Translations under genes and position numbers: made by a program
Assembly (NCBI GenBank): GCA_947367055.1
Contig: CANBCI010000003.1
Location: 161,508-225,507 of the forward strand
Reading direction: 5' to 3'
DNA length: 64,000 nt
From: an uncultured Alphaproteobacteria bacterium
GTDB taxonomy: Bacteria; Pseudomonadota; Alphaproteobacteria; Rs-D84
Shown here: positions 4,576-53,748 of the stretch, piece by piece
Layout: the number at the start of each line of letters is the position of its first letter
Position numbering within the stretch: position 1 is the stretch's first letter
The notes under the pieces: generated by a model
Databases searched by the model: none
What the model was told of the DNA's origin: nothing
What the model saw: only the letters and a program-made list of their open reading frames with translations

Positions 4576-4605
4576 AAAAATCCCGCAGGTTGCGGGATTT
4601 TATTT
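4576..4605. terminator. bidirectional terminator AAAAATCCCGCA-GGT-TGCGGGATTTT
   Basis: A perfect hairpin lies between mraZ (+) and the convergent large secreted-protein gene. Confidence 0.6.
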
Positions 4606-9180: not shown

Positions 9181-10128
9181 ATGAAATCATTTGTTTTTAT
9201 TGGTGTGGCGGCGGTCGTATTGGGCGCGGTCGGATTCGGAATTTATAAGTATAAGGAGTCAAAATTGCCAACAGTATATTTTTCGCGTGATATTTCCGCC
9301 GCAGGATTGGTGCGCGCGTATAATGCGGCGGGCTGGACACCAAATGGTGCGGTCGGCATCAAAATGTCCACCGGCGAACCACCCGCCAGCAACTACCTGC
9401 GGCCGGAGTTAATCGGCGACCTAGCATCACAGGTTCACGGAACCATTGTTGAATGCAATACCGGGTATGACGGCCGCCGCGCGCAAAGCGACGAACATTG
9501 GCGCGTTATTCGCGAACACGGATTTTTGGATGTCGCCCCCGTTGATATTCAAGACGAAGAAGGCAGCATGGCCATCACCGTTCCGAACCCGTTGCGCATT
9601 TCAGAAAATTATGTCGGAACGCATTTTGCAAATTATCCGTCATACATAATTTTGTCGCATTTCAAGGGGCATCAAATGGCCGGCTATGGCGGCGCATTGA
9701 AAAATATTTCAATCGGCTTTGCATCACGCATGGGCAAGGCATGGATTCATTCCGGCGGCACCAGCAAGGATGACCCGTGGCACGGGGAACAGGATGCATT
9801 TCTTGATTCCATGGCGGATGCGTCCGCCGCGGTTATCGATTATGTCGGCGCGGACAACATGCTTTACATAAATGTTCTTAACCGCATCAGCATTGATTGT
9901 GATTGCAACGGCAATCCGGCCGAACCCGATATTCACGACATAGGAATATTGGTGTCAACCGACCCCGTCGCCATTGACCAGGCCGGAATCGACATGGTGA
10001 CGGCGGCCCCGAACAATGCGGCGTTATTGAACCGGATTCATGAACGAAACGGCCTGCGAACGATAGAGGCCGCGGAAAAGCATGGTCTGGGGCACCGCAA
10101 ATACAAGCTCGTTGATTTGGATAAATAA
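9181..10128 (+). CDS. DUF362 domain protein (putative Fe-S protein) with N-terminal membrane anchor
   Basis: It has an N-terminal TM helix and an ...ISIDCDCNGNP... Cys motif. DUF362-like length. Confidence 0.6.
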   Translation: MKSFVFIGVAAVVLGAVGFGIYKYKESKLPTVYFSRDISAAGLVRAYNAAGWTPNGAVGIKMSTGEPPASNYLRPELIGDLASQVHGTIVECNTGYDGRRAQSDEHWRVIREHGFLDVAPVDIQDEEGSMAITVPNPLRISENYVGTHFANYPSYIILSHFKGHQMAGYGGALKNISIGFASRMGKAWIHSGGTSKDDPWHGEQDAFLDSMADASAAVIDYVGADNMLYINVLNRISIDCDCNGNPAEPDIHDIGILVSTDPVAIDQAGIDMVTAAPNNAALLNRIHERNGLRTIEAAEKHGLGHRKYKLVDLDK

Positions 10129-10143
10129 AAACGGAGGGAAAAA

Positions 10144-10680
10144 ATGAAAAAAATAACATTGGCTTTATTCGGTCTGGTCGCGATGCTGGCGGGCGGGGCC
10201 GACGCAAAAACATTGGTTGCTTATTATTCGCGTTCCGGCAACACGCAAACCATTGCGGAAATGATACGGGATGCCACCAGTGCCGACATATTTGAAATTA
10301 CAACCGCCGATGCAAACCATTACCCCGACGAATACAGACCAGCGACGGTTGTTGCCAAGGAAGAAATTGAATCCGGCAATTCCCCGGCAATCGCCGCTAC
10401 GCCGGACATGAGCCAATATGACACGGTCTTTGTCGGTTCGCCGTGCTGGTGGGGAACCATGGCCGGGCCGGTTCATACATTTTTAACAACGACCGACATG
10501 TCGGGCAAAACGGTCGTGCCGTTCAACACACACGAAGGCAGCGGCGCCGGCAGTGTTCACACCGACATTGAAAAATTGACACCGCAGTCGGCTCACAAAA
10601 ACGGCATCGCAATCCGCGGCAGCGAAGCGTCCAGTTCACGCGACACGATTAACGCATGGGTCAAAGAGATAGGAGAATAA
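10144..10680 (+). CDS. flavodoxin-like protein with signal peptide (exported)
   Basis: MKKITLALFGLVAMLAGGADA is followed by KTLVAYYSRSGNT, a flavodoxin FMN-binding loop. Confidence 0.65.
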   Translation: MKKITLALFGLVAMLAGGADAKTLVAYYSRSGNTQTIAEMIRDATSADIFEITTADANHYPDEYRPATVVAKEEIESGNSPAIAATPDMSQYDTVFVGSPCWWGTMAGPVHTFLTTTDMSGKTVVPFNTHEGSGAGSVHTDIEKLTPQSAHKNGIAIRGSEASSSRDTINAWVKEIGE

Positions 10681-11515: not shown

Positions 11516-11694
11516 GGCTGATAATTATAAATATATTTTTTTCATTTGCAAATCAATAAAGGTAGGCACAAATTCGCGTAAATTACCATTTGACCTTAAA
11601 AATCTTATGTGATTTAATCCGTGCTGACGACGGGGATCTCGTCGTTGGGTCTTACTAACCCGCAGTGTTGATGTCAGCGATGACATAAAATATC

Positions 11695-11834
11695 TCCAAC
11701 CTGTTATGCGGTTGGAGTGTGCCCAATATTTTGAATAAGCACGACAATTTCAACACATTGTTAGTAAGCTCCAACCACCAGATTTATTTGGTGGTGTTTT
11801 GTTTGATTAACCGCACAAAACAAGGAGTCTGGCG
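11695..11834 (+). promoter_or_regulatory. conserved structured leader, copy A (P1 CUCCAACC-UGUUAUGC-GGUUGGAG; P2 GUGC/GCAC; terminator GCUCCAACCACCAGAUUUAUUUGGUGGUG-UUUUGUUUG) upstream of PAP2 gene
   Basis: The hairpins and U-run are visible directly. The terminator ends 25 nt before ATG 11835. It is homologous to copies B and C. Confidence 0.5.
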
Positions 11835-12392
11835 ATGTCAAAAAAACTTAATATACTGATGGCGGTGTTGCTGTCGGGGCTGGTTCTGCTGCTGGTTTCG
11901 ACCAGGGCGCATGCCGGCGGACCATTTAGCAGTAAAAACAAACTGGGGGATGTCATGATGGTCATGAGTCCCACATACGCGCTGGGGATGACAATTATGG
12001 CCAAAGATTGGGCCGGGACGCTACAACTTGGCGAATCCATACTGGCCGCCCAGGTGGCCAGCGAGGGTATAAAAGCCCTGGAACTGGAACGGCGACCAAA
12101 CGGCGGGGATAAAAAATCTTTCCCCAGCGGCCATGCGGCGGGCGCATTTTCCGGGGCAATGTTTGTTCACAAAAGGTATGGTTGGAAACCGGCGCTTATT
12201 CCATATGCAATGAGCCTGGTCGCCGGCTGGAGTCGTGTAGAGGTCCGCGCGCATTATTGGCACGATGTTTTGGCGGGGGCGGCGGTATCGGCACTGTTCA
12301 CCTGGGTTTTGGTGGATAAATATGTACCCAAGGGTGTTGATGTCGCGGTCGGCATGGACGGCGCCCGCGTTGGTTTCAAAACCCAGTTTTAA
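11835..12392 (+). CDS. PAP2 family phosphatase (periplasmic/membrane phosphatidic acid phosphatase type 2)
   Basis: It carries the KSFPSGHAAGAFSGAMFV and YWHDVLAGAAVSA PAP2 signature motifs plus a signal peptide. Confidence 0.75.
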   Translation: MSKKLNILMAVLLSGLVLLLVSTRAHAGGPFSSKNKLGDVMMVMSPTYALGMTIMAKDWAGTLQLGESILAAQVASEGIKALELERRPNGGDKKSFPSGHAAGAFSGAMFVHKRYGWKPALIPYAMSLVAGWSRVEVRAHYWHDVLAGAAVSALFTWVLVDKYVPKGVDVAVGMDGARVGFKTQF

Positions 12393-35384: not shown

Positions 35385-35918
35385 TTATACTCTTTCGACC
35401 TGTTCAAATTCCAGTTCAACGCTAGTTTCACGACCAAACACCAGAATTGTGACCGTCATTTTTTGCTTTACATTATCAACATCGGACGCAACACCGTTGA
35501 AACCGGCAAACGGCCCGTCGATAACATGAACTTCCTGGCCCACCTCATACTCAACATCATCCGGCAGGAAACTACCCTCTTCCACCTGCTTTTGCAGACG
35601 GCGCGCCTCTTCTTCGCTGACGGCAATCGGCTTGTTTTTCGCCCCCAGGAACATAACAACCTGTGGCATCAGTTTAACCAGCGAGAATGTTTCGTTGTTC
35701 ATAACCATTTGAACAACAATGTATCCCGGAAAGAATTTGCGTTCCGCCTTGACGCGTTTTCCACCTTTGATTTCCACAACTTCGCGCGTCGGCACCAAAA
35801 TTTCGCCGAACAGCGCGTTCAGGCGCCGCTTGTCAATTTGTTCACGCAGGTTTCGCGCAACCTTGTCTTCGCACCCGGTGTGAACATTAACTACAAACCA
35901 CTGCATTTTGTCTTCCAT
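35385..35918 (-). CDS. nusG: transcription termination/antitermination factor NusG
   Basis: NGN and KOW domains are present, and it is positioned upstream of rplK. Confidence 0.9.
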   Translation of the reverse strand: MEDKMQWFVVNVHTGCEDKVARNLREQIDKRRLNALFGEILVPTREVVEIKGGKRVKAERKFFPGYIVVQMVMNNETFSLVKLMPQVVMFLGAKNKPIAVSEEEARRLQKQVEEGSFLPDDVEYEVGQEVHVIDGPFAGFNGVASDVDNVKQKMTVTILVFGRETSVELEFEQVERV

Positions 35919-35939
35919 ATGCGCATCCTTTGCCCGTGT

Positions 35940-36119
35940 TTAGAAAATCCAGCCTACAATCGCGTTCAGCACGCTGTCCACAACGAAAAAGAACAACGCC
36001 GCCAAACCAGAAAACACCAGAATCATTATCGTAGAACGAATTACGGTATCGCGCGACGGCCATACAATCTTGAACCATTCACTGCGTACTGATTTTATAT
36101 ATTCCAGTATTTTTTTCAT
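35940..36119 (-). CDS. secE: preprotein translocase subunit SecE
   Basis: The 59 aa product MKKILEYIKSVRSEWFKIVWPSRDTVIRSTIMILVFSGLAALFFFVVDSVLNAIVGWIF has a single TM. It is below the track cutoff. Confidence 0.8.
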   Translation of the reverse strand: MKKILEYIKSVRSEWFKIVWPSRDTVIRSTIMILVFSGLAALFFFVVDSVLNAIVGWIF

Positions 36120-36157: not shown

Positions 36158-36231
36158 TGGCAGGGGCAGAAGGAATCGAACCCTCATCCGCGGTTTTGGA
36201 GACCGATATTCTACCGTTGAACTATGCCCCT
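36158..36231 (-). tRNA. tRNA-Trp (anticodon CCA)
   Basis: The reverse complement AGGGGCATAGTTCAACGGTAGAATATCGGTCTCCAAAACCGCGGATGAGGGTTCGATTCCTTCTGCCCCTGCCA folds as a cloverleaf. Confidence 0.85.
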
Positions 36232-36477
36232 AAAAAGAACCAATTGCCTGCAATTTACAACGCCGGGCCAATATAGTCTGGGACAAGATAGCACAGCGCC
36301 ACAAAAAATCAAGCGGAAAATATTATAAGATTTTAATCGCGCCGGTGCAAGCAAAATATGCAATAAATATTCAAAATCAATCAGATAGGACGCGCGCACC
36401 ATCCGATACAAGCACTTTTTACTTGCGCGGCCCCCGCTTTTTTTTCTATGATTTACATACCAGGAGAGGAAAAATCG

Positions 36478-37154
36478 TGCAAAACCGCATAGAACCGCCA
36501 GTTTTAGTATCTCGTTTGATGACGTTTGTCTTGGCGGCGGCGCTGGTTGTATTAATGGCACTGGGGCTGACACTATACAAAATGTTCCCGCTAAACCGGC
36601 CGGAAATATTTTTCCTGGCATCCCAGCCGCGTGCCGATTTAGAAGTCCGGCTTATCGAAATGCCGCCAAATGATGAAAATTTGGCAAATTACAAAAAGGC
36701 TTTTATACGCGAATACATCAAGGCCCGAAACGAGGTTGTGCCCAATGCAAAGACAATGCGCGAAAAATGGGCGAACAACAGCGACGGCGTTGTGCGCGTA
36801 TGGTCTGACGACGCGGTATTTGCGAAATTCATTCAAACGGACATGTGGAACGCCCAGATGAACAACATACCGGATTTTGAGTTTTCATGCTCGGTTGAAT
36901 TTCAAAACGGTGCAATATCGCCATATTCAAACACTGACGACACATATATTGTAAATTTCCGTTATTTTTGTGCAGATAGTGATAGACAGATGGATAAAAA
37001 AGATTATAAAATAAAGATAAAGTTGGAAACAACGGACGGCGCAAAAATGAAATGGGCCGACCGCTTGGAAAATCCGTTGGGAATACGCGTGACGGAGTAC
37101 AAGGTGGAATCTGGAAACGGTGATCCGCTGGATACTGGGTTCCTGGCCGACTAA
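36478..37154 (+). CDS. virB8: type IV secretion system protein VirB8
   Basis: It has an N-terminal TM plus a periplasmic NTF2-like domain ending in NPLGIRVTEYKVE (VirB8 NPxG motif). Start is GTG at 36478 after GGAGAGG. The track's longer N-terminal extension is unlikely. Confidence 0.75.
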
Positions 37155-38720
37155 TTGATTTATGAAAGGATGATGGGCATGAGTTTTTCAAAAGCGTTCA
37201 AGTTAAATATATCCCTGTTGTGCATCGGCATGCTGTGCTTTGCCGCACCGGCGTTTGCCGAAGATTACGGCATACAGGAGGCATGGGACAACCCAAACGC
37301 CAACATGGCCAGCGGCAGCAGCAAACCCGGATACGCCCAATTGTCCTGGACCAAGGGCAGTGTTTTGCCAATCAAACTGCGCAACGGCATGGTGACAATG
37401 GTGACACTGCCAAACGGTGAACAAATTCAAGATGCCGTTATCGGGAACACGGGACTGTTCACAATTCAGGACGCGGTCCAGGGCGGCCGCACAATGATGA
37501 TAAGCCCGCAACCTGCCGTCCAGGGTGGCGATACAAACATGATTGTGACTGGCAAATCGGGAAATACATATGTGTTTTACCTGCGCGCGGAACCCGCAAA
37601 TTCCAGTGAAATTACATATTCACAGGTCGATATCGTTTTAGACGGAAACACCGCATTGCCCACAACGGGTACGGGCGCCACGACCGCATCCGGCGGAATG
37701 AATTCAATATTTGCGAAAAAATCCGCGGCGTCAAACACGGTTGGTGTTGACGGCGAAGATTACGGCTGGATAAAGTCCATGAAAATCGACCCGTCCGAAT
37801 TCCGCTTTGACCTGGACATTTTTGTTCCAAACCCTGATGATTATGTAATCGCACCGGAACGCGTATGGCGCGACAGAATATTTACATATATTGATTTTGG
37901 CGACAAGGTTATCGCCATGACCCAGCGCCCGGTCGTATCCCTTTTGGTCGAAGGTGGTGAATCCCCGGTTGGATTCCGCACCGACGGCGAAGACGGCCGC
38001 CTGTTGATTGTAGAGGCGGTCGGCGATATGGTTCTGCGCAGTGGCCAGCGAATTGTCTGCATTAAAAAGCGTGAAAAGCCGTTCCTGATTGCGGATACGG
38101 CATCCGTAATGGCCCTGGCCGAGGCGAATGTCGCCCAATCCATGATGTCCGGACAATCATTGAACAATATCGCGTATCAAATGGATGTGAACGCAATAAA
38201 CGCCGCCGGTACCAATTATACCGGGACACCGATATTCATGGGCCAAGGTGCCAGCAACACAACCGGTGCCGGATACTATATGCCCGCCGGATATGGCACA
38301 ATGATGACGGAAACTGTCACGGGTGGCGGCACGTCCGGCGTGACAATGATGCCGACCCAAAGACTAACGGCGGGTTCATATCTGCCACAAACAAATATAC
38401 CGCTGATTACCAGCAATCAAACCGGTGTCGCCGTTGAACTAAAATCCGACACATCAGTCAAGGCGCTGGATGATTATTGGACGGGTCTGCTGGCGAAATT
38501 CAGCGGCGATAACGGCCAGGGTCTGTTAACCCCGTACAAAGACATGGTGTTCTTTGCGGTTGATGAACAGGGTGTTGGTGATTTGGGTTCCGGTGCATCA
38601 ACGGCGCGTCTGTACCGCCTGCGCATAGGGCCGATGACGGATATTGACACGGCGCAATCGCTGTGCGACCAATTGCTGAAATTCAGCGGCGCCAGTTGCC
38701 ATGTCGTAAGAATCCAGTAA
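37155..38720 (+). CDS. virB9: type IV secretion system protein VirB9/TrbG-like, atypically long (521 aa) with Gly/Thr-rich insert and C-terminal SPOR-like domain
   Basis: The N-terminal domain is ...TGKSGNTYVFYL. The C-terminal VirB9 beta-sandwich is ...DYGWIKS...RIFTYIDFGD.... The C-terminus ...ARLYRLRIGPMTDIDTAQSLCDQLLKFSGASCHVVRI resembles SPOR. The true start may be ATG at 37179 (MSFSKAF… signal peptide). Confidence 0.7.
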   Translation: MIYERMMGMSFSKAFKLNISLLCIGMLCFAAPAFAEDYGIQEAWDNPNANMASGSSKPGYAQLSWTKGSVLPIKLRNGMVTMVTLPNGEQIQDAVIGNTGLFTIQDAVQGGRTMMISPQPAVQGGDTNMIVTGKSGNTYVFYLRAEPANSSEITYSQVDIVLDGNTALPTTGTGATTASGGMNSIFAKKSAASNTVGVDGEDYGWIKSMKIDPSEFRFDLDIFVPNPDDYVIAPERVWRDRIFTYIDFGDKVIAMTQRPVVSLLVEGGESPVGFRTDGEDGRLLIVEAVGDMVLRSGQRIVCIKKREKPFLIADTASVMALAEANVAQSMMSGQSLNNIAYQMDVNAINAAGTNYTGTPIFMGQGASNTTGAGYYMPAGYGTMMTETVTGGGTSGVTMMPTQRLTAGSYLPQTNIPLITSNQTGVAVELKSDTSVKALDDYWTGLLAKFSGDNGQGLLTPYKDMVFFAVDEQGVGDLGSGASTARLYRLRIGPMTDIDTAQSLCDQLLKFSGASCHVVRIQ

Positions 38721-38743
38721 TCCAAGCACGCGGCGGATAAAAC

Positions 38744-41107
38744 ATGATTAAAATAAAGCAACAATTTTCAGACCTGCGCAAAACAACGCCAAAGCATATC
38801 CAGTGGCTGCTGCTGGCGGCGGCGTTTATTGTGGTGTTGATATTGTTGACGCTACTGCTGACGGGCGGTGGGAAACAGGAAACAATCCAAAACACGGACG
38901 ATATTCCGGTACAATTAAACATAACGCCCGATGTAATCGACTGGGCGGACACGCCGGTTGATGAACGCCGCACGGAAACGATAAAAGTGTCGGCCAGTGG
39001 TCCGGTAAAAATCACGGCGGTTCGTGATACAAAAAGCATATCGGGATTTGAACACAAAGAAACCTGTCCCAACATGGGCGAAGTCAATGACAAAATCTCG
39101 TGCACGATAACGGTTGATTATGCACCAACCGCCGCCGCCGCCGCCGAAGGAAATGCACTGTTTATCGATTGGCGCGGTGCAAATGAATCCGACGCAATGG
39201 TGCGCACCGATAAAATTATCATCACATTGGGCGCGGTTGCACCCGCGGCGCCGGCAAATTTCATAGAACCAGAACCTGAGCCGGAAATTGTTATCCCGGA
39301 ACCGACGCCTGTAACGGCTGAAATTGTGCGTGAAATTGAAACAATCGCACCGTCTGATCCGTTTGCCGACGACAATGATGACGATTTTGTGGTCCCAGAA
39401 CCTGTACAACCCGCGCCACCGCCGGCAAAGCCGGTTGCAAATACACCGTCACGGGCAGAGGCATGCTCTGACTTTGCATTTGCGGGCTACAATTCAACTG
39501 GCAATCAAATCGGCTGGATAAAGCCAGAGGGCGGCGCATATTACTTTCACCCGTTTTCCGATAAAAACTGCGATACGCCGACGGGTATTTATAATCCGGA
39601 CAACGGCATAATTACATCAATTGACGGATCGGGTCAAAAAATCGGCACCGATGCGGAACATATCGGCCAGACGACAATTTCACTAAACGGCACGATTCCG
39701 CAACTGTCCAATGCGCCGGCCGTAAAAAAGGTGAACCGTGCACGGCAATTAACCACCGAAGAACTATCAACAGTCGCATTAAATGAGGGCATGGGCCAGG
39801 TTCCGTTGACCCCCGCGCCCGTGGACGTCAGTTTTGATTCCAGTGGCGACGTAATCCAGAATACGCAGCCATTTGACCGCTCATTTATACTGCGTCAATA
39901 TAAACCAATTCCGGCAACAATTGTTTCGGACATTCGTGCCGATGCAGAGGCATTGGCAAACAACACACTGCCGGTTCGCGCAACAGTTGACCGCAATGTC
40001 TATGCCGATAACGGCCGCACGGTTATTATACCGGCCGGGACCCTGCTGATGGGATATGTGACGGGCACATTGCCCGGCCCGTACACCACAATCGGGCGTA
40101 TGGATATCCGTTGGTACCAGTTTATATTGCCCAGTGGCGTTGAATTTAATTTCCAAAATAAAGAACAGGATCCGTTTTCCGCAGACGCCCAGGGGCGCAC
40201 CGGTGTTCCCGGCCGCGGCAGCACGGATTATCTGGAACAGTTTGTTATGCCGATGCTGACGGCGATTGTACCGGCGGCGGTAAACATGATTGCACCTGTC
40301 GCGGACAAGTTTGTTAACCAGATTGATTTGGACAATAACACCGTGGTTCAAAGCGGCACACTGCGTTCATCGGAATTGGCTAAAAATGAAATTATCACCG
40401 CATGGAATCAGGTGGCCCAGAAATTAATGGTTGATATGATGGAAAATACAGTACCGCCGTTTTCAATTGCGGCCGGCACGCGTATAACCGTGTATTCGCC
40501 GGTTGATTTGCAGGTCACATGCGGATCCGCAGCAGAAAACCCGGGCAAAAAATGCGCCATAAAAGAATACAATACCAGCAGACGCCGCAATGTTGTCAAT
40601 GATGCGCAACCGAATTATTCCGACGGATCTTGGGTCGGCCAGGTTCGCTCTTTCAACTGGGCTAAATATTGCGACGGGTACGCAAATGGTAAACTGTCAG
40701 ACTATCAAACAGAGAAAGTATACCAAGACGGCCTGGATTATAGTTCGGTTCTGTTCTATTGCCAATCCAACCAATACAAGGCGATAAACAACGCCCGCCA
40801 GGAGGCATTGTACCAGAATCAGCAGTCAACCAGCAATCAGAACAGCGTTGCCAGCATGGGCGGCATAGGGTCGACCACATACAATGAAAATGTTCTGGGG
40901 TTGCAGTATGCGGACGAAGATAAAACACAGATTGTAAATCCGTTTATACAATTGCCGACGGAAAACGCCCCGTTGATAACATGCGAAGACGGTTCAAATC
41001 CGGACGCAAACGGATGTTGCACCGGTGAAATATATACGGACATGGGTGACCAAGGATTTAATTGTTGCCCGGAAACCGGGGGCGATTGTTTCCCGCCGAT
41101 ACTGTAA
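38744..41107 (+). CDS. virB10: type IV secretion system protein VirB10/TrbI-like, atypically long (787 aa) with Pro-rich linker and approx 230 aa Cys-rich C-terminal extension
   Basis: It has a TM near the N-terminus, a PEPEPEIVIPEPTP linker, and the core ...RTVIIPAGTLLMGYVTG...RMDIRWYQFILPSG...TGVPGRGSTDYLEQF.... An extra domain ends in ...CEDGSNPDANGCCTGEIYTDMGDQGFNCCPETGGDCFPPIL. Confidence 0.8.
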   Translation: MIKIKQQFSDLRKTTPKHIQWLLLAAAFIVVLILLTLLLTGGGKQETIQNTDDIPVQLNITPDVIDWADTPVDERRTETIKVSASGPVKITAVRDTKSISGFEHKETCPNMGEVNDKISCTITVDYAPTAAAAAEGNALFIDWRGANESDAMVRTDKIIITLGAVAPAAPANFIEPEPEPEIVIPEPTPVTAEIVREIETIAPSDPFADDNDDDFVVPEPVQPAPPPAKPVANTPSRAEACSDFAFAGYNSTGNQIGWIKPEGGAYYFHPFSDKNCDTPTGIYNPDNGIITSIDGSGQKIGTDAEHIGQTTISLNGTIPQLSNAPAVKKVNRARQLTTEELSTVALNEGMGQVPLTPAPVDVSFDSSGDVIQNTQPFDRSFILRQYKPIPATIVSDIRADAEALANNTLPVRATVDRNVYADNGRTVIIPAGTLLMGYVTGTLPGPYTTIGRMDIRWYQFILPSGVEFNFQNKEQDPFSADAQGRTGVPGRGSTDYLEQFVMPMLTAIVPAAVNMIAPVADKFVNQIDLDNNTVVQSGTLRSSELAKNEIITAWNQVAQKLMVDMMENTVPPFSIAAGTRITVYSPVDLQVTCGSAAENPGKKCAIKEYNTSRRRNVVNDAQPNYSDGSWVGQVRSFNWAKYCDGYANGKLSDYQTEKVYQDGLDYSSVLFYCQSNQYKAINNARQEALYQNQQSTSNQNSVASMGGIGSTTYNENVLGLQYADEDKTQIVNPFIQLPTENAPLITCEDGSNPDANGCCTGEIYTDMGDQGFNCCPETGGDCFPPIL

Positions 41108-41112
41108 ATAAT

Positions 41113-41138
41113 ACCCCCGCGCATGCGGGGATTTTTTT
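41113..41138 (+). terminator. rho-independent terminator ACCCCCGC-GCAT-GCGGGGGATTTTTTT after virB10
   Basis: A perfect hairpin plus T7. Confidence 0.65.
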
Positions 41139-41414
41139 ATTAACCACAGGGGTTGAAAAAATAAAGAAATGATTTATATATGTTCATGTATTCGGCACGC
41201 ACATTCGCGTGCCGTTTTTATTATACGCCAATTTGCGCCGCCCTGAAAAACGCGATATTTTGCGATTCGGATACACCCCAACAAAAGCGACAAACGAATC
41301 GAAAAACATAATCGCATTTCAACCATTGGTTGTAACATTTTACAGCCTTCAATTCTTGCTCTATACCAAAAGGACAACCTGTCATAAGTAATCTAAACAC
41401 AAAGGAGGGATAAT

Positions 41415-41759
41415 ATGACACAAAAAGAAGCCGTACTAAACAATTCGGAAAAATTCCAGAACGCCGAACAATTATGGTTTTGGTTTCTGTATTCAAAATC
41501 CGTTCAACATGGTTTTGTACGGAATTTTGGACGCGCCACCCGCAGACCCTGTGAATTGCTGGATGTTGAAACGCTGATAACAAAATTGTACCTGTCGGGT
41601 CGGCTGAATGACGAACAATTGGCCGTCATGAAAAAGTTCGGCGACCGGCGGCGCGCGCCACACCAACATATTTGGCATGAAAACCGTGCCGCGGACTTAT
41701 GGCGCCGCGCAATGGAAACATTGAACACGGCATTTACACAACAGGGATGGATTGAATAA
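41415..41759 (+). CDS. hypothetical protein (114 aa) with strong SD AAAGGAGGG
   Basis: A clean ORF with an RBS, in a small operon downstream of virB10. Confidence 0.5.
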   Translation: MTQKEAVLNNSEKFQNAEQLWFWFLYSKSVQHGFVRNFGRATRRPCELLDVETLITKLYLSGRLNDEQLAVMKKFGDRRRAPHQHIWHENRAADLWRRAMETLNTAFTQQGWIE

Positions 41760-42192
41760 AACTATCGGCACACGGCATCCGGCGGGGAGATACGAATGCC
41801 CACGCCCGTTATACAAACATATTGGAACACTTGACATGATTATTATTGCATTTTCATCAAATACATCAAAAATATTACCACGAATTTTTTGCAGACATTT
41901 TCGGCACTGTGCGGTGATTATCCCGCACGCGGGTATGCAGCCCGAACTGCATTTATACCAATTTCTGCGACGCAAGCATGTTGCACGATTATCCCTAAAA
42001 TGCCGCGATATAAATGTGCTGCGCAGGCATGGATGGCATTTCTTATACATACCGGGCGACGTCACGATGCCAACAAATGCGGCGCGCGCCATGACATGCG
42101 TCAATTTTACAAAACGGGCAATCGGCATGCGCGCCCCATTTGTACAAACCCCGGACGCCCTGTACCGGCGACTAAAACACATGATAAAATGA
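41752..42192 (+). CDS. hypothetical protein (146 aa), overlaps upstream stop by 8 nt
   Basis: The ORF is followed by a terminator. Composition is less protein-like. Confidence 0.3.
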   Translation: MNKTIGTRHPAGRYECPRPLYKHIGTLDMIIIAFSSNTSKILPRIFCRHFRHCAVIIPHAGMQPELHLYQFLRRKHVARLSLKCRDINVLRRHGWHFLYIPGDVTMPTNAARAMTCVNFTKRAIGMRAPFVQTPDALYRRLKHMIK

Positions 42193-47602: not shown

Positions 47603-48817
47603 TTAATGAAACACATAACTGTCAATTCCGGCGGCGGACGCCCGCTGACGCAAAGATGATGCCGCGGCGTCCGACAATCCGTTCACACGCACGCGCCACA
47701 TTCCATTTGGTGCCTTTTCAATCACTGGCGCGACATTTAACGAACTTTTCACATTGGCAACCTGATTTGCGGCCGCATCACGCGATGAAAACGCACCAAA
47801 CTGAACCCCGGCCGCACCGACGCCAGATGCCGCACCACCAGATGACGCGGTCGATTTTGCCGGCGCCGAATTATGCTGCGCACCACTTGTCGCCGCAACA
47901 TACGCCGCATTAAATGTCGGCGCGGCAGCGGCATTTGACTTTGGCTGTGCGACGGGCACTGGCGCAGATGACGCGGACGATACGGGCGACGCCACCACGG
48001 CGGCGGCATCAGGCGCAACACCCGACAACGCGAAACCCTTGTTTAACATCTGGACCGATACGTTCGCACGCACATCCTTGTTTTCCGCCCCCAAGACCAC
48101 GGACATCATGCGTTTTCCGCCGCGTTGCGCGGTCGCAACCAGCGAATATTTAGACTTGTTCGTAAAGCCGGTTTTCATCCCGTCACACCCCGCATACGAC
48201 CCCAGCAACCGGTTGCCGTTTGTATATGTTTTGCCGTTGTATGTCCATGTCTTTATTCCGAAATATTTCCAGTATTGCGGGAAATGCTTATACACCGCCA
48301 TGGACAGCAATGCAATATCACGCGCAGTCGACAAATGATCATCATTCGGCAGTCCGGACGAATTTTCGAAATTGGTCTGACTAAGTCCGATTTCATTGGC
48401 AACGCGGGTCATAAGGCCGGCAAAATTGCCCTCCTTGCCCCCTTTAAGGTTTTCCGCCAACACCCGCGCAACATCATTTGCGCTTAAAACCGCGACAGCC
48501 TTTATCGCGTTTTCAACGGAAATCTTGCTGCCCGCGGCCAGGCCCAGTTTTACCGGCGACGCGTTTGCGGCAGACTGTGATACAATCAGATAATCATCCA
48601 GATGCAGCCGCCCGTGTTCCAGCGCATCAAATGTCAAATACAGTGTCATTATCTTGGTCAATGACGCCGGATAATTCGGCTGGGTTGCGTTTTCCTGATA
48701 CAATATGCGCCCGGTATCCATATCGGCAACCAAGGCGGCCCGATACTGCGCCGCACGCGCCGGCGCGCATAATGCCGCCGCAAAAAATGCACAAATAAGA
48801 ATGCCCCTTGCCTTCAT
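47603..48817 (-). CDS. D-alanyl-D-alanine carboxypeptidase (PBP5/DacC-like) with C-terminal SPOR domain
   Basis: It carries SLTKIMT (SxxK) and SGN motifs. The C-terminus ...VQFGAFSSRDAAANQV...WRVRVNGLSD...SYVF is a SPOR domain. Confidence 0.8.
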   Translation of the reverse strand: MKARGILICAFFAAALCAPARAAQYRAALVADMDTGRILYQENATQPNYPASLTKIMTLYLTFDALEHGRLHLDDYLIVSQSAANASPVKLGLAAGSKISVENAIKAVAVLSANDVARVLAENLKGGKEGNFAGLMTRVANEIGLSQTNFENSSGLPNDDHLSTARDIALLSMAVYKHFPQYWKYFGIKTWTYNGKTYTNGNRLLGSYAGCDGMKTGFTNKSKYSLVATAQRGGKRMMSVVLGAENKDVRANVSVQMLNKGFALSGVAPDAAAVVASPVSSASSAPVPVAQPKSNAAAAPTFNAAYVAATSGAQHNSAPAKSTASSGGAASGVGAAGVQFGAFSSRDAAANQVANVKSSLNVAPVIEKAPNGMWRVRVNGLSDAAASSLRQRASAAGIDSYVFH

Positions 48818-51802: not shown

Positions 51803-53659
51803 TTATTTACAAGTATGTGTACCTACATCCCAGTTTTTGCCGGCCGCAATACAGTCTTGAATTGCTTGACTATTTGCATTCAAATCCGGCATTTTGAACA
51901 GATTTTTTGTTGCCTTTTCAACTGGGCCCATTGACTTTACACTATCCGTCATATTAAATTGGCATTCGCCGTTTACATCCTCTGAATAACCAAATGGACA
52001 ACTACATGTACTGCTTAATGTCCAAACACCCCCAGAATTTTTGCATTTACATTCAGCGGTTCCAGCCGCAACGGAAGTACTGCAATAAGAGCTGTTCTGG
52101 CTGGTTGTATCACTAGTTACAGGACCGGTGCCTACTTTTTTAGAATACGTTGACTTTAAGTCTTTAACACAAACTTTTTCCGGCAATTGTTTAAGATTAA
52201 CCGCTTTCTGTAGTTCCGATAATGTATTTTCATTTACCGCACAATAAATTACGCCGTCATTTGCGGGTGTTGTATTTCCCCCAAACAGGCCCGAACCGTA
52301 TATCGCCGGTGCATCCTGTTCAATTATGCGTTCCAGAATCTCAACATCAATTGACGCCTGTTTCTTGCGTTTGCCGAATATTTTTGAATTATCCAATGCG
52401 GCCGACGCACATCCGACACGAATGCTGTCGTCACCATTTTCTTCGCTGTCAAGCCAATCGCGGTAAACCTGATCCGAACTGCTTAATGTCTTGTTCAATG
52501 TACAGTACATATCATCTTCGGCGGGGATAACCATACCCAGTGTGCAAGAATGCCCACCCTTGGCACCATAACCCGCCACGGATTTACCATTTGAACAATT
52601 TCTTTCATCGTATGTATATCTCTTATTACCCTTTTCAGGATATGCACACAAATACTGTCCCCAGATATTACAACTGCCCTCAAGCATCATGTAGATATCC
52701 GTAATATCAACACCGACAGACTGTGCGGTTATCAACGCGTCGTACATTTCATCCAAAACATCATTGTACGGTTCAAAGAATTGCTCTGCCCGGTCCTTGA
52801 ACACCTTTACACGCTTTGGCCCGGCGCAATTGTTTCCCTTTTTATCGCACCCGGCATATTCAAACGCCGTTTCCATTGTCGCCTTTAGAGATTTCATTGC
52901 GACCTCGGCATTTTCAATTTTTGACAGGATTTCACCCGAAATCTGTTCACGCAGCAATATGTCACTTGATACGCCGTTTTGCGCTGCGGCAACCTGGGCG
53001 GCGGTTAATTGCGTTTCACCGGACGGACTAGACACCATGCCGGCGGCGGCCGCGGTTGTCGCCGTGGCCGCGGCGTTCGCCGTTGCCTGGGCGGTTAATT
53101 GTTTCTGTTCCTCTAGCGCGGCCTGCATCTGTTGCATTTGCTGGGCATTCTGGGCGGCCATTTCAGCCTGCATCTGTTGCATTTGCATCTGCATTTGTTG
53201 CATCTGCTGGGCGGACTGCTGCGCGGCGGCATTTTGCGCCGCGGCCGCGGCCTGGGCGGCGGCCTCGTTCGCCTTGGCGGTCGATGACGCAACCAGTTGC
53301 GCCGAAATATATTGAACTAAATCATTTCCGTATTGCTTACACGCGTCATTTGATTGGACACAGCCCGATACAATCGCCGATGTGACATCCATTGATGTGC
53401 AACCGCCCGTCGCACATTTCGGCTGTGCACAGCGCATAATCAACGCATTGCAATTTCCAAAATCAGCCGTGGCCGGCGTTCCCGCCGCATTGCGCGAATT
53501 GATAAGCGAATTCCAGTTGTTGTTGTTATTTGCGCCCGACGGATTAAAAGCGGTTAAATTATTGCCATTCGTGGTTGCAATCACCGCGCCCGCGTCAAAC
53601 ATCGGCGCAAAGGCAATCGCAGATATTGCGGACAAAAAAATCAATGATATGCGTTTCAT
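51803..53659 (-). CDS. secreted Cys-rich coiled-coil protein (approx 618 aa) with Gln/Met-rich repeat (QQMQQMQMQMQQMQAEM) and C-terminal EGF-like motifs (ECKCKNSGG…STCSCPFGYSEDVNGEC)
   Basis: The likely start is MKRISLIFLSAISAIAFA (AGAGAGAA SD) rather than the track start 53737. The CSCPFGY...C stretch fits the EGF-2 pattern. Confidence 0.65.
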   Translation of the reverse strand: MKRISLIFLSAISAIAFAPMFDAGAVIATTNGNNLTAFNPSGANNNNNWNSLINSRNAAGTPATADFGNCNALIMRCAQPKCATGGCTSMDVTSAIVSGCVQSNDACKQYGNDLVQYISAQLVASSTAKANEAAAQAAAAAQNAAAQQSAQQMQQMQMQMQQMQAEMAAQNAQQMQQMQAALEEQKQLTAQATANAAATATTAAAAGMVSSPSGETQLTAAQVAAAQNGVSSDILLREQISGEILSKIENAEVAMKSLKATMETAFEYAGCDKKGNNCAGPKRVKVFKDRAEQFFEPYNDVLDEMYDALITAQSVGVDITDIYMMLEGSCNIWGQYLCAYPEKGNKRYTYDERNCSNGKSVAGYGAKGGHSCTLGMVIPAEDDMYCTLNKTLSSSDQVYRDWLDSEENGDDSIRVGCASAALDNSKIFGKRKKQASIDVEILERIIEQDAPAIYGSGLFGGNTTPANDGVIYCAVNENTLSELQKAVNLKQLPEKVCVKDLKSTYSKKVGTGPVTSDTTSQNSSYCSTSVAAGTAECKCKNSGGVWTLSSTCSCPFGYSEDVNGECQFNMTDSVKSMGPVEKATKNLFKMPDLNANSQAIQDCIAAGKNWDVGTHTCK

Positions 53660-53748
53660 ATTCTCTCTGCTACAAATTTTAACACAAAGTTCGAATAAAA
53701 CAAAGCAAAAAGATATACACCGTACGCTTAAAAACAAAAAGCGGCAGA

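Follow-up and report, generated by a model that had tools for sequence, protein, structure and literature searches.

Core complexes of known type IV secretion systems

Core complexes of type IV secretion systems (T4SS) have been solved for pKM101 (TraN/O/F, 3JQO), R388 (TrwH/F/E, 7O3J), Xanthomonas citri (VirB7/9/10, 6GYB) and Cag (6X6S). These complexes need the VirB7 lipoprotein; a SPOR-like VirB9 end, an ASH-like VirB10 domain and a Cys-rich VirB10 tail are absent from all of them. The genes of the Rickettsiales vir homolog (rvh) T4SS are split over several loci, with virB8-virB9-virB10-virB11-virD4 kept contiguous. H. pylori ComB is encoded by the comB6-10 and comB2-4 operons; comB8, comB9 and comB10 form an operon to which the other com genes, including the VirB4 homolog, are unlinked. 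The Bordetella Ptl T4SS has no coupling protein and exports a periplasmic, Sec-delivered substrate; its VirB4 and VirB11 homologs are kept in one operon. The P-type T4SS of sphingomonad megaplasmids are annotated and known from genes alone. Those of Sphingosinicella sp. BN140058 p1 (NZ_CP035502.1) and the Erythrobacter aureus YH-07 plasmid (NZ_CP031358.1) comprise VirB2, B3, B4, B5, B6, a VirB7-like lipoprotein, B11, D4 and a MobA/MobL relaxase.

The window analysed here, a 64-kb stretch of DNA taken as a whole, is chromosomal DNA of the gut alphaproteobacterium Candidatus Enterousia (order Rs-D84), whose genome is <1 Mb. It carries virB8, virB9 and virB10 in the same order as the megaplasmids. 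Unlike the megaplasmids, the locus is chromosomal, has only these three genes and lies amid housekeeping genes. Its closest annotated relatives (VirB9 38% identical) lie in complete virB2-B11/virD4 and MobA/MobL clusters, and the megaplasmid VirB9 NTD and CTD are 38-42% identical to those of Enterousia (hhalign E 5e-42). All the solved core complexes are only marginally similar in sequence to the Enterousia proteins, R388 TrwF giving a weak match to the VirB9 NTD, and the Enterousia operon encodes no VirB7. With rvh the triad shares a chromosomal location and vertical inheritance in a reduced-genome, host-dependent alphaproteobacterium; unlike rvh, it has a terminator after virB10 and no B11 or D4 within 10 kb. 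The window holds no second virB8 or virB9 of the duplicated rvh type. The operon resembles that of ComB in being unlinked to a VirB4 homolog, and ComB10 is among the few solved relatives of VirB10 detectable by both sequence and fold. However, no ComB6 or ComB7 lies upstream in the Enterousia operon, and the 246-aa ComB10 chain (2bhv) is without Ig-like, mid, Cys-rich or SPOR-like domains.

The operon and its borders

The three genes form a single operon on the + strand, with intergenic gaps of 23-24 nt. It is divergent from tRNA-Trp and secE and ends in two terminators.

36158..36231, - strand: tRNA-Trp (CCA), by ARAGORN and Rfam; conserved left border of the operon
36477..37154, + strand: virB8, 225 aa, by Pfam VirB8 and the gene call in the identical contig L001
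37179..38720, + strand: virB9, long form, 513 aa, by Pfam CagX
38394..38717, + strand: SPOR-like C-terminal domain of VirB9, aa 406-513, ending ...RLYRLRIGPMTDIDTAQSLCDQLLKFSGASCHVVRIQ; borderline Pfam SPOR
38744..41107, + strand: virB10, long form, 787 aa, by Pfam TrbI/VirB10
38906..39238, + strand: N-proximal periplasmic Ig-like (ASH/PapD-like/MSP) domain of VirB10, with conserved C108 and C120
39458..39733, + strand: mid domain of VirB10, aa 239-330, small and beta-rich, two Cys, no known family
40520..40978, + strand: VirB10 C-extension up to the CC module, aa 593-745, partly helical, by alignment and AF2
40979..41104, + strand: terminal CC module of VirB10, aa 746-787, ~40 aa, by alignment
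41115-41130 and 41193-41214, + strand: two intrinsic-terminator-like hairpins with T-runs, by sequence and consensus scan; operon end
41415..41759, + strand: orf114, a conserved 114-aa gene 3' of virB10 with its own AAGGAGGG ribosome-binding site and no signal peptide

Beyond tRNA-Trp, the - strand continues with secE, nusG, rplKAJL and rpoBC. nusG and rplK were identified by Pfam. The secE ORF of the window as scanned (35887-36078) gave no Pfam match, and its label comes from the precomputed Pfam SecE match to the same gene in the identical contig L001, which also supplied the virB8 gene call. The first-pass annotation had placed the operon where tuf normally sits, which is right as to position only, the operon being on the opposite strand. 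The terminator that it reported at 41113 is borne out by the two hairpins, but its virB8 start at 36478 had to be moved to a GTG at 36477, which is preceded by a AGGAGAGG ribosome-binding site. The gene orf114 (median identity 70.5%) follows virB10 in 74 of 80 loci from genomes and 46 of 80 from metagenomes; it had no match in Pfam, NCBIfam or PDB.

Family assignment

All three proteins score above the Pfam gathering cut-offs: VirB8 39.8 bits against VirB8 (PF04335, cut-off 23.2); VirB9 77.6 bits over aa 54-297 against CagX/VirB9 (PF03524, cut-off 34.2), a family matched by all 41 VirB9 orthologs; and VirB10 62.1 bits against TrbI/VirB10 (PF03743, cut-off 35). The locus is, as initially identified, a T4SS VirB8/9/10 core operon, and no other T4SS gene lies nearby. 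The NCBIfam scores are 14.9 bits for VirB8 (NF010439, equivalog cut-off 188), 51.5 for VirB9 (TIGR02781, 217.7) and, for VirB10, 57.8 with T4SS_VirB10 (NF038091, 220) and 53.5 with ComB10 (NF038092, 300). All are below the equivalog cut-offs; the triad represents a deeply divergent branch, assignable to no named equivalog.

VirB8 is predicted to be bitopic, with a short cytoplasmic tail, a single TM helix (LMTFVLAAALVVLMALGLTLY) and a periplasmic VirB8 domain.

VirB9 and its SPOR-like end

VirB9 was expected to be unusually long with a Gly/Thr/Ala-rich insert, and both features are present. A Sec signal peptide (aa 1-27) is followed by the NTD, a Gly/Thr/Ala linker (156-190), the CTD (191-300), a nearly invariant helical stretch (301-335), a low-complexity Gly/Met/Thr linker (336-405) and the SPOR-like domain. 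Identity is 99% in the CTD, 94% in the helical stretch and 86% in the SPOR-like domain.

The SPOR assignment proposed for the C-terminus is borderline. Against Pfam SPOR (PF05036, cut-off 21 bits), the isolated C-terminus scores 21.4 bits but the full-length protein only 18.0, and the alignment covers only the second half of the profile (positions 41-75). The profile is nevertheless matched at E <= 0.01 by 40 of 41 VirB9 orthologs (best 4.4e-6), and precomputed PF05036 matches occur in near and distant orthologs. AF2 predicts the beta-alpha-beta-beta-alpha-beta order of SPOR domains (E416-422, H427-439, E457-462, E478-486, H489-503, E507-512, with a short extra helix H451-456) at a pLDDT of only 50-68. 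The whole VirB9 model is poor (pLDDT 45), so the SPOR fold is tentative. Like the SPOR domains of FtsN, DamX, DedD, RlpA and the DacC-like PBP of this window (47603-48817), the VirB9 end is ~70-100 aa, C-terminal and periplasmic, with Pfam SPOR matches family-wide; unlike them, it has a 20-aa insertion in its first half. The DacC-like SPOR itself scores 25.8 bits, and the VirB9 end resembles it weakly (hhalign E 1e-3, probability 21%, second half only). Since VirB9 carries this SPOR-like domain, it is reasonable to infer that the protein is tied to peptidoglycan through it.

At 430-432 aa, the megaplasmid VirB9 is likewise long; it shares the terminal ..VRLRVGPF...C....G.SC.V motif, and its Pfam SPOR scores, 13-16 bits, stay below the threshold. 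A SPOR-like end thus already exists in the annotated, complete conjugation systems of Sphingosinicella and Erythrobacter. The N-proximal region of megaplasmid VirB10 aligns with the Ig-like domain of Enterousia with both Cys kept; the plasmid proteins gave no fold or family match of their own. Judged by the condition that the first-pass annotation itself set, long forms in related annotated T4SS, the long SPOR-like VirB9 and, apparently, the two-Cys N-proximal VirB10 domain are two features not unique to Enterousia.

VirB10 architecture

VirB10 is, as first described, about twice the usual length and has extra domains. A cytoplasmic tail and TM helix (aa 1-44) are followed by the Ig domain (~55-165), a Pro-rich region (166-238), the mid domain, a linker, the TrbI beta-barrel with two antenna helices (376-592) and the Cys-rich C-extension (593-787). 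VirB10 thus keeps the topology of its family, with a TM anchor at the N-terminus, then a Pro-rich region, and towards the C-terminus a beta-barrel that has a two-helix antenna. The barrel is 83% identical. The cytoplasmic tail and TM helix are 73% conserved, with R12, P16, Q20 and W21 invariant, which points to a conserved partner in the inner membrane or cytoplasm.

Residues 55-165 were recognized as an ASH/PapD-like/MSP Ig-fold (PF15780; NCBIfam choice-of-anchor D) by both fold match and profile score. The mid domain, with the consensus CSDFAF.GYN..G.QIGWIKPE.GAYYFHPFSDK.C..PTG.YNPDNGII...KIGTDAEHIG, is predicted with a pLDDT of ~80 and is 71% identical within the genus; Pfam gives no match at E <= 10. 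It is kept in all relatives of the chromosomal clade down to 25% identity and is absent from plasmid VirB10. The C-extension had been described as ~230 aa with 12 Cys; it is ~195 aa with 10 Cys, all invariant in 59 homologs. Its first part (593-745), 49% identical within the genus, has four of these Cys (593, 604, 643, 673) and AF2 helices at 653-694, and gave no Pfam match. All 14 Cys of VirB10 are invariant.

The only PDB sequence matches for VirB10 are ComB10 and CagY. Its architecture is absent from every structurally characterized VirB10 matched (chains of ~180-220 aa), in agreement with the view that it is atypical of characterized VirB systems. To our knowledge it is also absent from rvh, where we know of no SPOR-like VirB9 end or long VirB10. 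Megaplasmid VirB10 has neither mid domain nor Cys-rich extension with CC module; the mid domain and the Cys-rich C-extension are specific to the chromosomal clade.

The six-Cys CC module

VirB10 ends in a previously undescribed module with the consensus C.DG..PD.NGCC[TP]GE.YTDMGD.GFNCCP..GGDCFPPI[L]. Its six Cys are invariant, its identity across the genus is 91%, and no sequence match was found in Pfam, NCBIfam or PDB. A supposed resemblance of the VirB10 tail to secreted Cys-rich proteins of the window was not upheld: BLASTP E-values are >2 and the motif occurs in no other window ORF. Elsewhere in the same genomes, the module is found in 1-3 copies in small Sec-signal proteins, in a lipoprotein, in an 84-aa protein with a TM anchor and in a bitopic protein of 679 aa. 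CC-module proteins are encoded within an operon for MacB_PCD/FtsX proteins and an ABC ATPase, and in one relative (L097) a stand-alone 111-aa CC-module protein lies directly 3' of virB10. We read it as a putative docking module of the periplasm or cell surface. A functional analogy to Ptl would be possible if the channel has the small Sec-signal CC-module proteins as its clients.

Conservation and distribution

The same triad is found with intact ORFs in ~160 related contigs; the related Candidatus Enterousia/Rs-D84 MAGs include a 958,618-bp circular chromosome. The synteny nusG-secE-tRNA / virB8-9-10 / orf114...yidC is conserved in 80 species and, among 42 further contigs from metagenomes, in 36. 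Median identity over the 80 species is 59% for VirB8 and 77% for VirB9, compared with 62% for YidC and 66% for LspA. VirB9 is more conserved than either housekeeping protein. The triad is under extreme purifying selection, its family membership and domain layout are established, and its synteny is conserved.

In two relatives (L097 and L181) the operon is enlarged to 8-9 genes. The L097 additions are a 48-aa lipoprotein, two bitopic proteins (one with a weak VirB8 match), the CC-module protein, a secreted 116-aa protein and a lipoprotein, every one with a signal peptide, lipobox or TM helix. No added gene in L097 or L181 matched an ATPase or another cytoplasmic-enzyme family.

An obligate symbiont or parasite lifestyle has been proposed for Rs-D84 (PMC12306168). 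The genomes are <1 Mb with a coding density of 81-94% and no accumulation of pseudogenes; nucleotide biosynthesis is absent and standard importers are lacking (PMC12306168). The published survey of these genomes does not mention T4SS (PMC12306168).

Search for the remaining components

Pfam was run on 38 other window ORFs and found no further T4SS family; outside the operon there are 35 non-overlapping ORFs of >=150 aa, and the scan included 30 of them. Likewise, tblastn with a complete T4SS probe set over the entire 64 kb found no other T4SS gene. By both methods the window has no VirB2, VirB3, VirB4, VirB5, VirB6, VirB11, VirD4 or pilin gene, and no relaxase or integrase was found among the Pfam-scanned ORFs near the operon. 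Within 10 kb of the triad, tblastn detected none of these T4SS genes in 2.7 Mb of related loci, ~170 of which bear the triad. They are also missing from the precomputed Pfam tables for seven divergent lineages with different genomic contexts. Directly 3' of virB10, where terminators follow, no virB11 or virD4 was detected in any lineage by tblastn or Pfam. The 245-nt spacer between the tRNA and virB8 holds no lipoprotein ORF that could be VirB7; VirB7-like lipoproteins are present in the relatives L093, L097 and L181 and in the Erythrobacter plasmid. The term "stand-alone" in the first-pass annotation thus applies to the neighbourhood, i.e., the 64-kb window and the 10-kb flanks in relatives, and not to the genome.

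Models for the triad

The best overall explanation, which we hold to be slightly better than an even bet, is a P-type-derived T4SS scaffold that became a fixed chromosomal trait, has its remaining parts elsewhere and serves exchange with a partner. In this view a type IV secretion-type machine, vertically inherited in Rs-D84/Enterousia and derived from P-type (VirB/D4-like) alphaproteobacterial systems, has its envelope-spanning scaffold encoded by the operon. VirB8 would provide the inner-membrane anchor and a periplasmic ring. VirB10, anchored in the inner membrane by its conserved tail and TM helix, would span the periplasm through the Ig-like domain, Pro-rich region and mid domain, and its barrel and two antenna helices would form the outer-membrane pore. 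VirB9 would encircle the VirB10 barrel, its SPOR-like C-terminus tying the ring to peptidoglycan, and the Cys-rich VirB10 tail with the six-Cys module would serve periplasmic or surface docking. VirB3/4/6, and perhaps B11/D4, would be encoded elsewhere in the genome by analogy to the split rvh and ComB systems. The machine may mediate contact-dependent exchange between this metabolically crippled bacterium and the partner cell that it is predicted to rely on.

It is conceivable, at a probability well below even, that VirB8, VirB9 and VirB10 work without VirB4, B11 and D4. Such a module could be a peptidoglycan-anchored outer-membrane pore or an attachment/junction structure, acting with the VirB7-like lipoprotein, VirB8-like paralogs and small secreted proteins of the relatives; transport would be passive or coupled to another machine, e.g., the MacB-type ABC system of the CC-module operon. 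This would fit a triad never linked to a T4SS ATPase in ~170 contig stretches and seven lineages of varied context, enlarged operons whose added genes have no ATPase or cytoplasmic-enzyme match and, in L097, encode membrane and secreted proteins, a CC module common to VirB10 and proteins from the MacB_PCD/FtsX operon, and genomes lacking standard importers. However, we know of no functional T4SS or T4SS-derived machine without VirB4, the retention of VirB8 and of the VirB10 cytoplasmic tail is most easily fitted to an inner-membrane complex, rvh and ComB are precedents for split loci, and the data cover ~2-7% of each genome. That the triad is an autonomous, ATPase-less descendant of a conjugative T4SS, forming a peptidoglycan-anchored trans-envelope pore or junction for attaching to and drawing from partners, is accordingly offered as a tentative and rather doubtful proposal. 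Several lineages of Alphaproteobacteria, including at least one whose genomes are reduced, would use such a device.

A role as the comB8-9-10 equivalent of a competence T4SS, importing DNA across the outer membrane, is improbable. The content and order of the operon are the same, the ComB10 profile scores nearly as high as VirB10's own, ComB10 is with CagY the only PDB sequence match, and imported DNA could supply nucleotides to an organism that cannot make them. But the ComB10 score is far below its equivalog cut-off, and in sequence the triad is closest to conjugative VirB systems of alphaproteobacteria rather than to ComB. Since ComB also requires ComB4, the VirB4 homolog, the same problem of a missing ATPase arises. 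It is very improbable that the triad is a functionless, decaying leftover of a plasmid T4SS or of an integrated conjugative element. In favour are a T4SS gene set of only three out of about eleven and relatives that are plasmid-borne conjugation systems, but the conservation data contradict decay: the ORFs stay intact across the related contigs, VirB9 outranks YidC and LspA, every VirB10 Cys is invariant, and the chromosomal position is fixed across the genus in small, densely coding genomes with no pseudogene accumulation. Neither a relaxase nor an integrase lies nearby.

Significance

The locus adds to T4SS biology: i) a VirB9 fused to a SPOR-like, putatively peptidoglycan-binding, domain; ii) a VirB10 with a new mid domain besides its ASH-like Ig domain; iii) an undescribed 40-aa six-Cys module common to VirB10 and secreted proteins; and iv) chromosomal core-complex operons that form a clade and are never linked to motor ATPases. 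If the ATPases are encoded elsewhere, this would be another split T4SS, like rvh; if the machine truly works without VirB4, it would, as far as we know, be the first such T4SS-derived machine described.

Enterousia and other Rs-D84 are widespread in livestock, wild-animal and human guts, with genomes of <1 Mb, no obvious route of nutrient import and no known partner organism. Because the triad is as conserved as housekeeping genes and never lies beside motor ATPases, it may form a contact organelle with partner cells. As a T4SS-type scaffold whose conservation exceeds that of YidC, it is the best available candidate structure for partner interaction.

Organization of the virB8-virB9-virB10 locus

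The segment 36477-41107 is taken up by three plus-strand ORFs, virB8, virB9 and virB10, with intergenic spacing of 23-24 nt. The products belong to the Pfam families VirB8 (39.8 bits), CagX (77.6 bits) and TrbI (62.1 bits), all above the gathering score. NCBIfam names the same families, but every score falls far short of its equivalog cut-off; this triad of T4SS core-complex genes is thus a deeply divergent branch. The operon and the genes tRNA-Trp, secE, nusG, rplKAJL and rpoBC are transcribed divergently; beyond its 3' end are orf114, yidC, lspA, a kefB-like gene, ksgA, recR, a DacC-like PBP gene and pyk.

Features of the window
4605-6869, minus: large secreted protein, 754 aa
36158-36231: tRNA-Trp, divergent from the operon
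36477 (GTG start), plus: virB8, 225 aa; the RBS AGGAGAGG precedes the start
37179 (ATG), plus: virB9, 513 aa
ending at 41107, plus: virB10, 787 aa
41115-41130 and 41193-41214: two terminators (hairpin plus T-run), 3' of virB10
41415-41759, plus: orf114, 114 aa, own RBS, no signal peptide
41697-42182, minus: 161-aa Cys-rich ORF overlapping the 3' end of orf114
47603-48817, minus: DacC-like D,D-carboxypeptidase (PBP) with a bona fide C-terminal SPOR domain (Pfam 25.8 bits)
51803-53737, minus: large secreted protein, 644 aa
55460-60502, minus: RND efflux set of AcrB-family pump, adaptor-like ORF and outer-membrane factor

Downstream of virB10, the small gene orf114 is present at 74 of the 80 loci taken from genomes and at 46 of 80 from metagenomes; its product matched nothing in Pfam, NCBIfam or the PDB. 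Because its motif ELLDVETLITKLYLSGRL..EQL has the look of a helix-turn-helix, orf114 may encode a regulator. The overlapping 161-aa Cys-rich ORF is found at 80% or more of its length in only 12 of 80 loci, at 33-44% identity, and is probably not a real gene. The RND set (1019-aa AcrB-family pump, short 206-aa adaptor-like ORF, 443-aa OEP/TolC-like factor) is notable in a genome that was reported to lack standard importers.

Conservation in Candidatus Enterousia

A metagenome contig with an identical locus exists. VirB9 proteins 74-82% identical to that of the window occur in 80 species-level genomes of uncultured Alphaproteobacteria, many of them named Candidatus Enterousia and one of them a 958,618-bp circular chromosome. 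Enterousia belongs to the order Rs-D84 and has been proposed to live as an obligate symbiont or parasite (PMC12306168). The triad is intact and adjacent in all 80 genomes, flanked, where the flanks are covered, by nusG/secE upstream and by orf114 and then yidC downstream. Of 42 further metagenome contigs whose flanking sequence was long enough, 36 showed this arrangement too; in the exceptions, large secreted proteins are inserted. Median identity to the window proteins is 95% for L11, 89% for NusG, 77% for VirB9, 70.5% for orf114, 66% for LspA, 62% for YidC, 59% for VirB8 and 56% for VirB10. By region, identity reaches 99% in the VirB9 CTD and 86% in its SPOR-like end, and in VirB10 it is 83% in the TrbI barrel, 91% in the last 42 residues and 73% in the cytoplasmic tail and TM helix. 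The triad is under selection, and its identity, intactness and flanks exclude a pseudogene or decaying remnant.

Architecture of VirB9 and VirB10

VirB9 consists of a Sec signal peptide, the NTD and CTD (CagX, aa 54-297), a nearly invariant helical stretch, a Gly/Met/Thr-rich linker and a SPOR-like end of ~100 residues. This end matched Pfam SPOR in 40 of 41 orthologs at E <= 0.01 (best 4.4e-6), the alignment covering only the second half of the profile. For the window protein the score was 21.4 bits with the domain alone and 18.0 bits for this region in its full-length context; the cut-off is 21. In the AF2 model the secondary-structure elements run in the SPOR order, apart from a short additional helix; the model was built from 41 close homologs, a diversity too shallow, without the distant homologs (alignments A4 and A5), and at a pLDDT of 45 it was too poor for a fold search. 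Aligned by hhalign to the SPOR domain of the DacC-like protein, the comparator within the genome, the VirB9 C-terminus gave a weak match (E 1e-3, probability 21%). On this evidence the domain is called SPOR-like, a probable assignment and not a proven one. Among PDB sequences VirB9 had one marginal match, TrwF (E 1.6e-3). No paper tying VirB9 to SPOR was found in the literature.

The AF2 model of VirB10 (mean pLDDT 65, globular parts about 80-88) starts at its N-terminus with a tail and a TM helix, and further comprises a Pro-rich region, a mid domain and a 195-aa extension with 10 invariant Cys. The mid domain (239-330) is small, beta-rich and of no known family. Only CagY and ComB10 were matched among PDB sequences, both marginally.

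A Cys-rich module shared with small secreted proteins

The last 42 residues of VirB10, C.DG..PD.NGCC.GE.YTDMGD.GFNCCP..GGDCFPPIL, are shown by an exhaustive profile search to be a separate module, termed here the CC module, which recurs elsewhere in one to three copies per protein. It had no match in Pfam, NCBIfam or PDB sequences. A 362-sequence family of small Sec-signal proteins carries it, all of them unannotated alphaproteobacterial MAG proteins; members (for example P0301, P0313, P0324, P0333, P0341 and P0377 in alignment A3, and the genes at 10001-10645 of loci L084-L088) are about 180-270 aa long, with an N-terminal two-Cys helical region and two or three CC modules. The module is also present in a lipoprotein, an 84-aa membrane-anchored protein and a 679-aa bitopic protein. 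CC-module proteins and the triad occur in the same genomes, as seen from a common MAG locus-tag prefix (K2I81) and from JAFURB01 contigs 7 and 8. Their genes are placed in a MacB-type ABC operon or beside gcrA. In Enterousia the small CC protein is the final gene of the conserved operon, the order being 107 aa, 447 aa, MacB_PCD/FtsX permease, (241 aa), ABC ATPase, 188-225 aa, CC protein. T4SS genes adjoining CC-module proteins were looked for and not found.

The first-pass annotation had likened the VirB10 tail to a secreted Cys-rich family in the window. This kinship was ruled out by BLASTP and motif searches, in which no window ORF resembled the tail; the large secreted Cys-rich proteins at 4605-6869 and 51803-53737 are a family other than that of the CC module. 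Further large secreted proteins of this kind are encoded at:

L032 15073-17328, minus
L157 3984-6227
L145 1909-5457

Together with the two of the window, they are 644-1182 aa long and rich in Cys, with Ser/Thr/Arg-rich low-complexity N-terminal parts. The two window proteins and that of L032 (751 aa) are loosely related (E 1e-9 to 4e-3), and similar ones are variably inserted directly beside the triad in some species. They match no known family and could be surface proteins or effectors.

Plasmid and chromosomal relatives

Among annotated proteins, the closest relatives are the VirB9 of two megaplasmids, one from Sphingosinicella and one from Erythrobacter, with 38% identity over NTD and CTD (hhalign E 5e-42). 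These plasmids carry a complete cluster, virB2, B3, B4, B5, B6, a VirB7-like lipoprotein, B8, B9, B10, B11 and D4, and also encode a MobA/MobL relaxase. Their VirB9 is likewise long (430-432 aa), has the C-terminal motif VRLRVGPF...C....G.SC.V in common with Enterousia, and gives sub-threshold SPOR matches at its end. In their VirB10, the N-proximal region can be aligned to the Ig-like domain of the Enterousia protein, both Cys being kept, whereas the mid domain and the Cys-rich tail are missing. Fusion of VirB9 to a SPOR-like end is therefore older than the chromosomal clade, as probably is the Ig domain of VirB10; regarded earlier as atypical, these features are not unique to it, since both appear to occur in annotated, complete plasmid T4SSs.

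The more distant chromosomal relatives have a GC of 30 to 53% and identities of 25-41% for VirB10 and 38-63% for VirB9; the mid domain is kept throughout, and a divergent CC module in the nearer ones. Six further lineages were examined (L089; L091/L099; L092; L093; L097; L181). The genes lie amid housekeeping genes at a different chromosomal site in each, with neighbours including mutS/thrS, hpf/secF, a PBP1 gene and lptF/G. Some lineages add a VirB7-like lipoprotein, two extra bitopic proteins and small secreted proteins. Two low-GC relatives have enlarged operons:

L097 4488-11912
L181 3692-10440

These encode a 48-aa VirB7-like lipoprotein, whose ..SPCAC motif also occurs in the Erythrobacter plasmid, a pair of bitopic proteins (~200-260 aa), virB8-9-10 and then small proteins. 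The small proteins of L097 are a 111-aa CC-module protein, its gene directly 3' of virB10, a secreted protein of 116 aa, homologs of which occur in L092 and L093, and a lipoprotein. Searched against Pfam and NCBIfam, the unknown neighbours in the distant lineages gave only one weak VirB8 match (a bitopic protein of L097, 263 aa) and lipoprotein signals; no ATPase gene is present in the two enlarged operons.

A paralogous pair of ~410-460 aa, with no family match, is conserved just upstream of virB9-virB10 in L091 (759-3397) and L099 (5261-7961); virB8 is not adjacent there, and an opposite-strand hpf lies between the pair and virB9. In one species (L002), virB9 and virB10 are separated by an inserted 120-aa ORF (11611-11973, plus); judged by eye, it resembles the 23S rRNA intervening-sequence proteins, a four-helix-bundle family.

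Search for the remaining T4SS components

The triad has no ATPase gene nearby. Outside the operon the window has 35 non-overlapping ORFs of 150 aa or more; 30 of these were among the 38 ORFs beyond the triad that were searched against Pfam, none of which matched a T4SS family. By tblastn, VirB2-B11/D4 probes, a complete set from the nearest plasmid relative, detected only B9 and B10 in the 64 kb. VirB4, B6, B11 and D4 are absent within 10 kb of the triad in the six further lineages, and in all 2.7 Mb of fetched loci the plasmid probes found them only in the two plasmids. The related loci cover 10 kb on either side of the match, a few per cent of each genome. No paper tying Enterousia or Rs-D84 to type IV secretion was found.

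A model for the triad

The analysis establishes the triad's family membership, its domain layout, its selection and the local lack of ATPase genes; on the powering of the triad machine and on its cargo, we infer rather than observe. The triad might function autonomously, as an envelope module with no ATPase, perhaps together with the MacB-type system, which has the CC module in common. This idea, which we consider unlikely, stays alive on two counts: in seven lineages no ATPase gene is linked to the triad, and none of the genes added in the enlarged operons matches an ATPase or other cytoplasmic-enzyme family. A ComB-like role in DNA uptake seems improbable; it is a variation in function, and the data cannot tell it apart from this module or from the split T4SS considered next.

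We lean towards a split T4SS for three reasons: i) an inner-membrane complex best accounts for VirB8 and for the conserved VirB10 cytoplasmic tail; ii) to our knowledge, no VirB4-less T4SS has been described; and iii) only a small part of each genome was surveyed. In the rvh and ComB systems, T4SS parts are split between loci. By analogy, the inner-membrane and ATPase components would be encoded elsewhere in the genome, and the triad would, rather probably, be one part of a split but functional T4SS-type machine.
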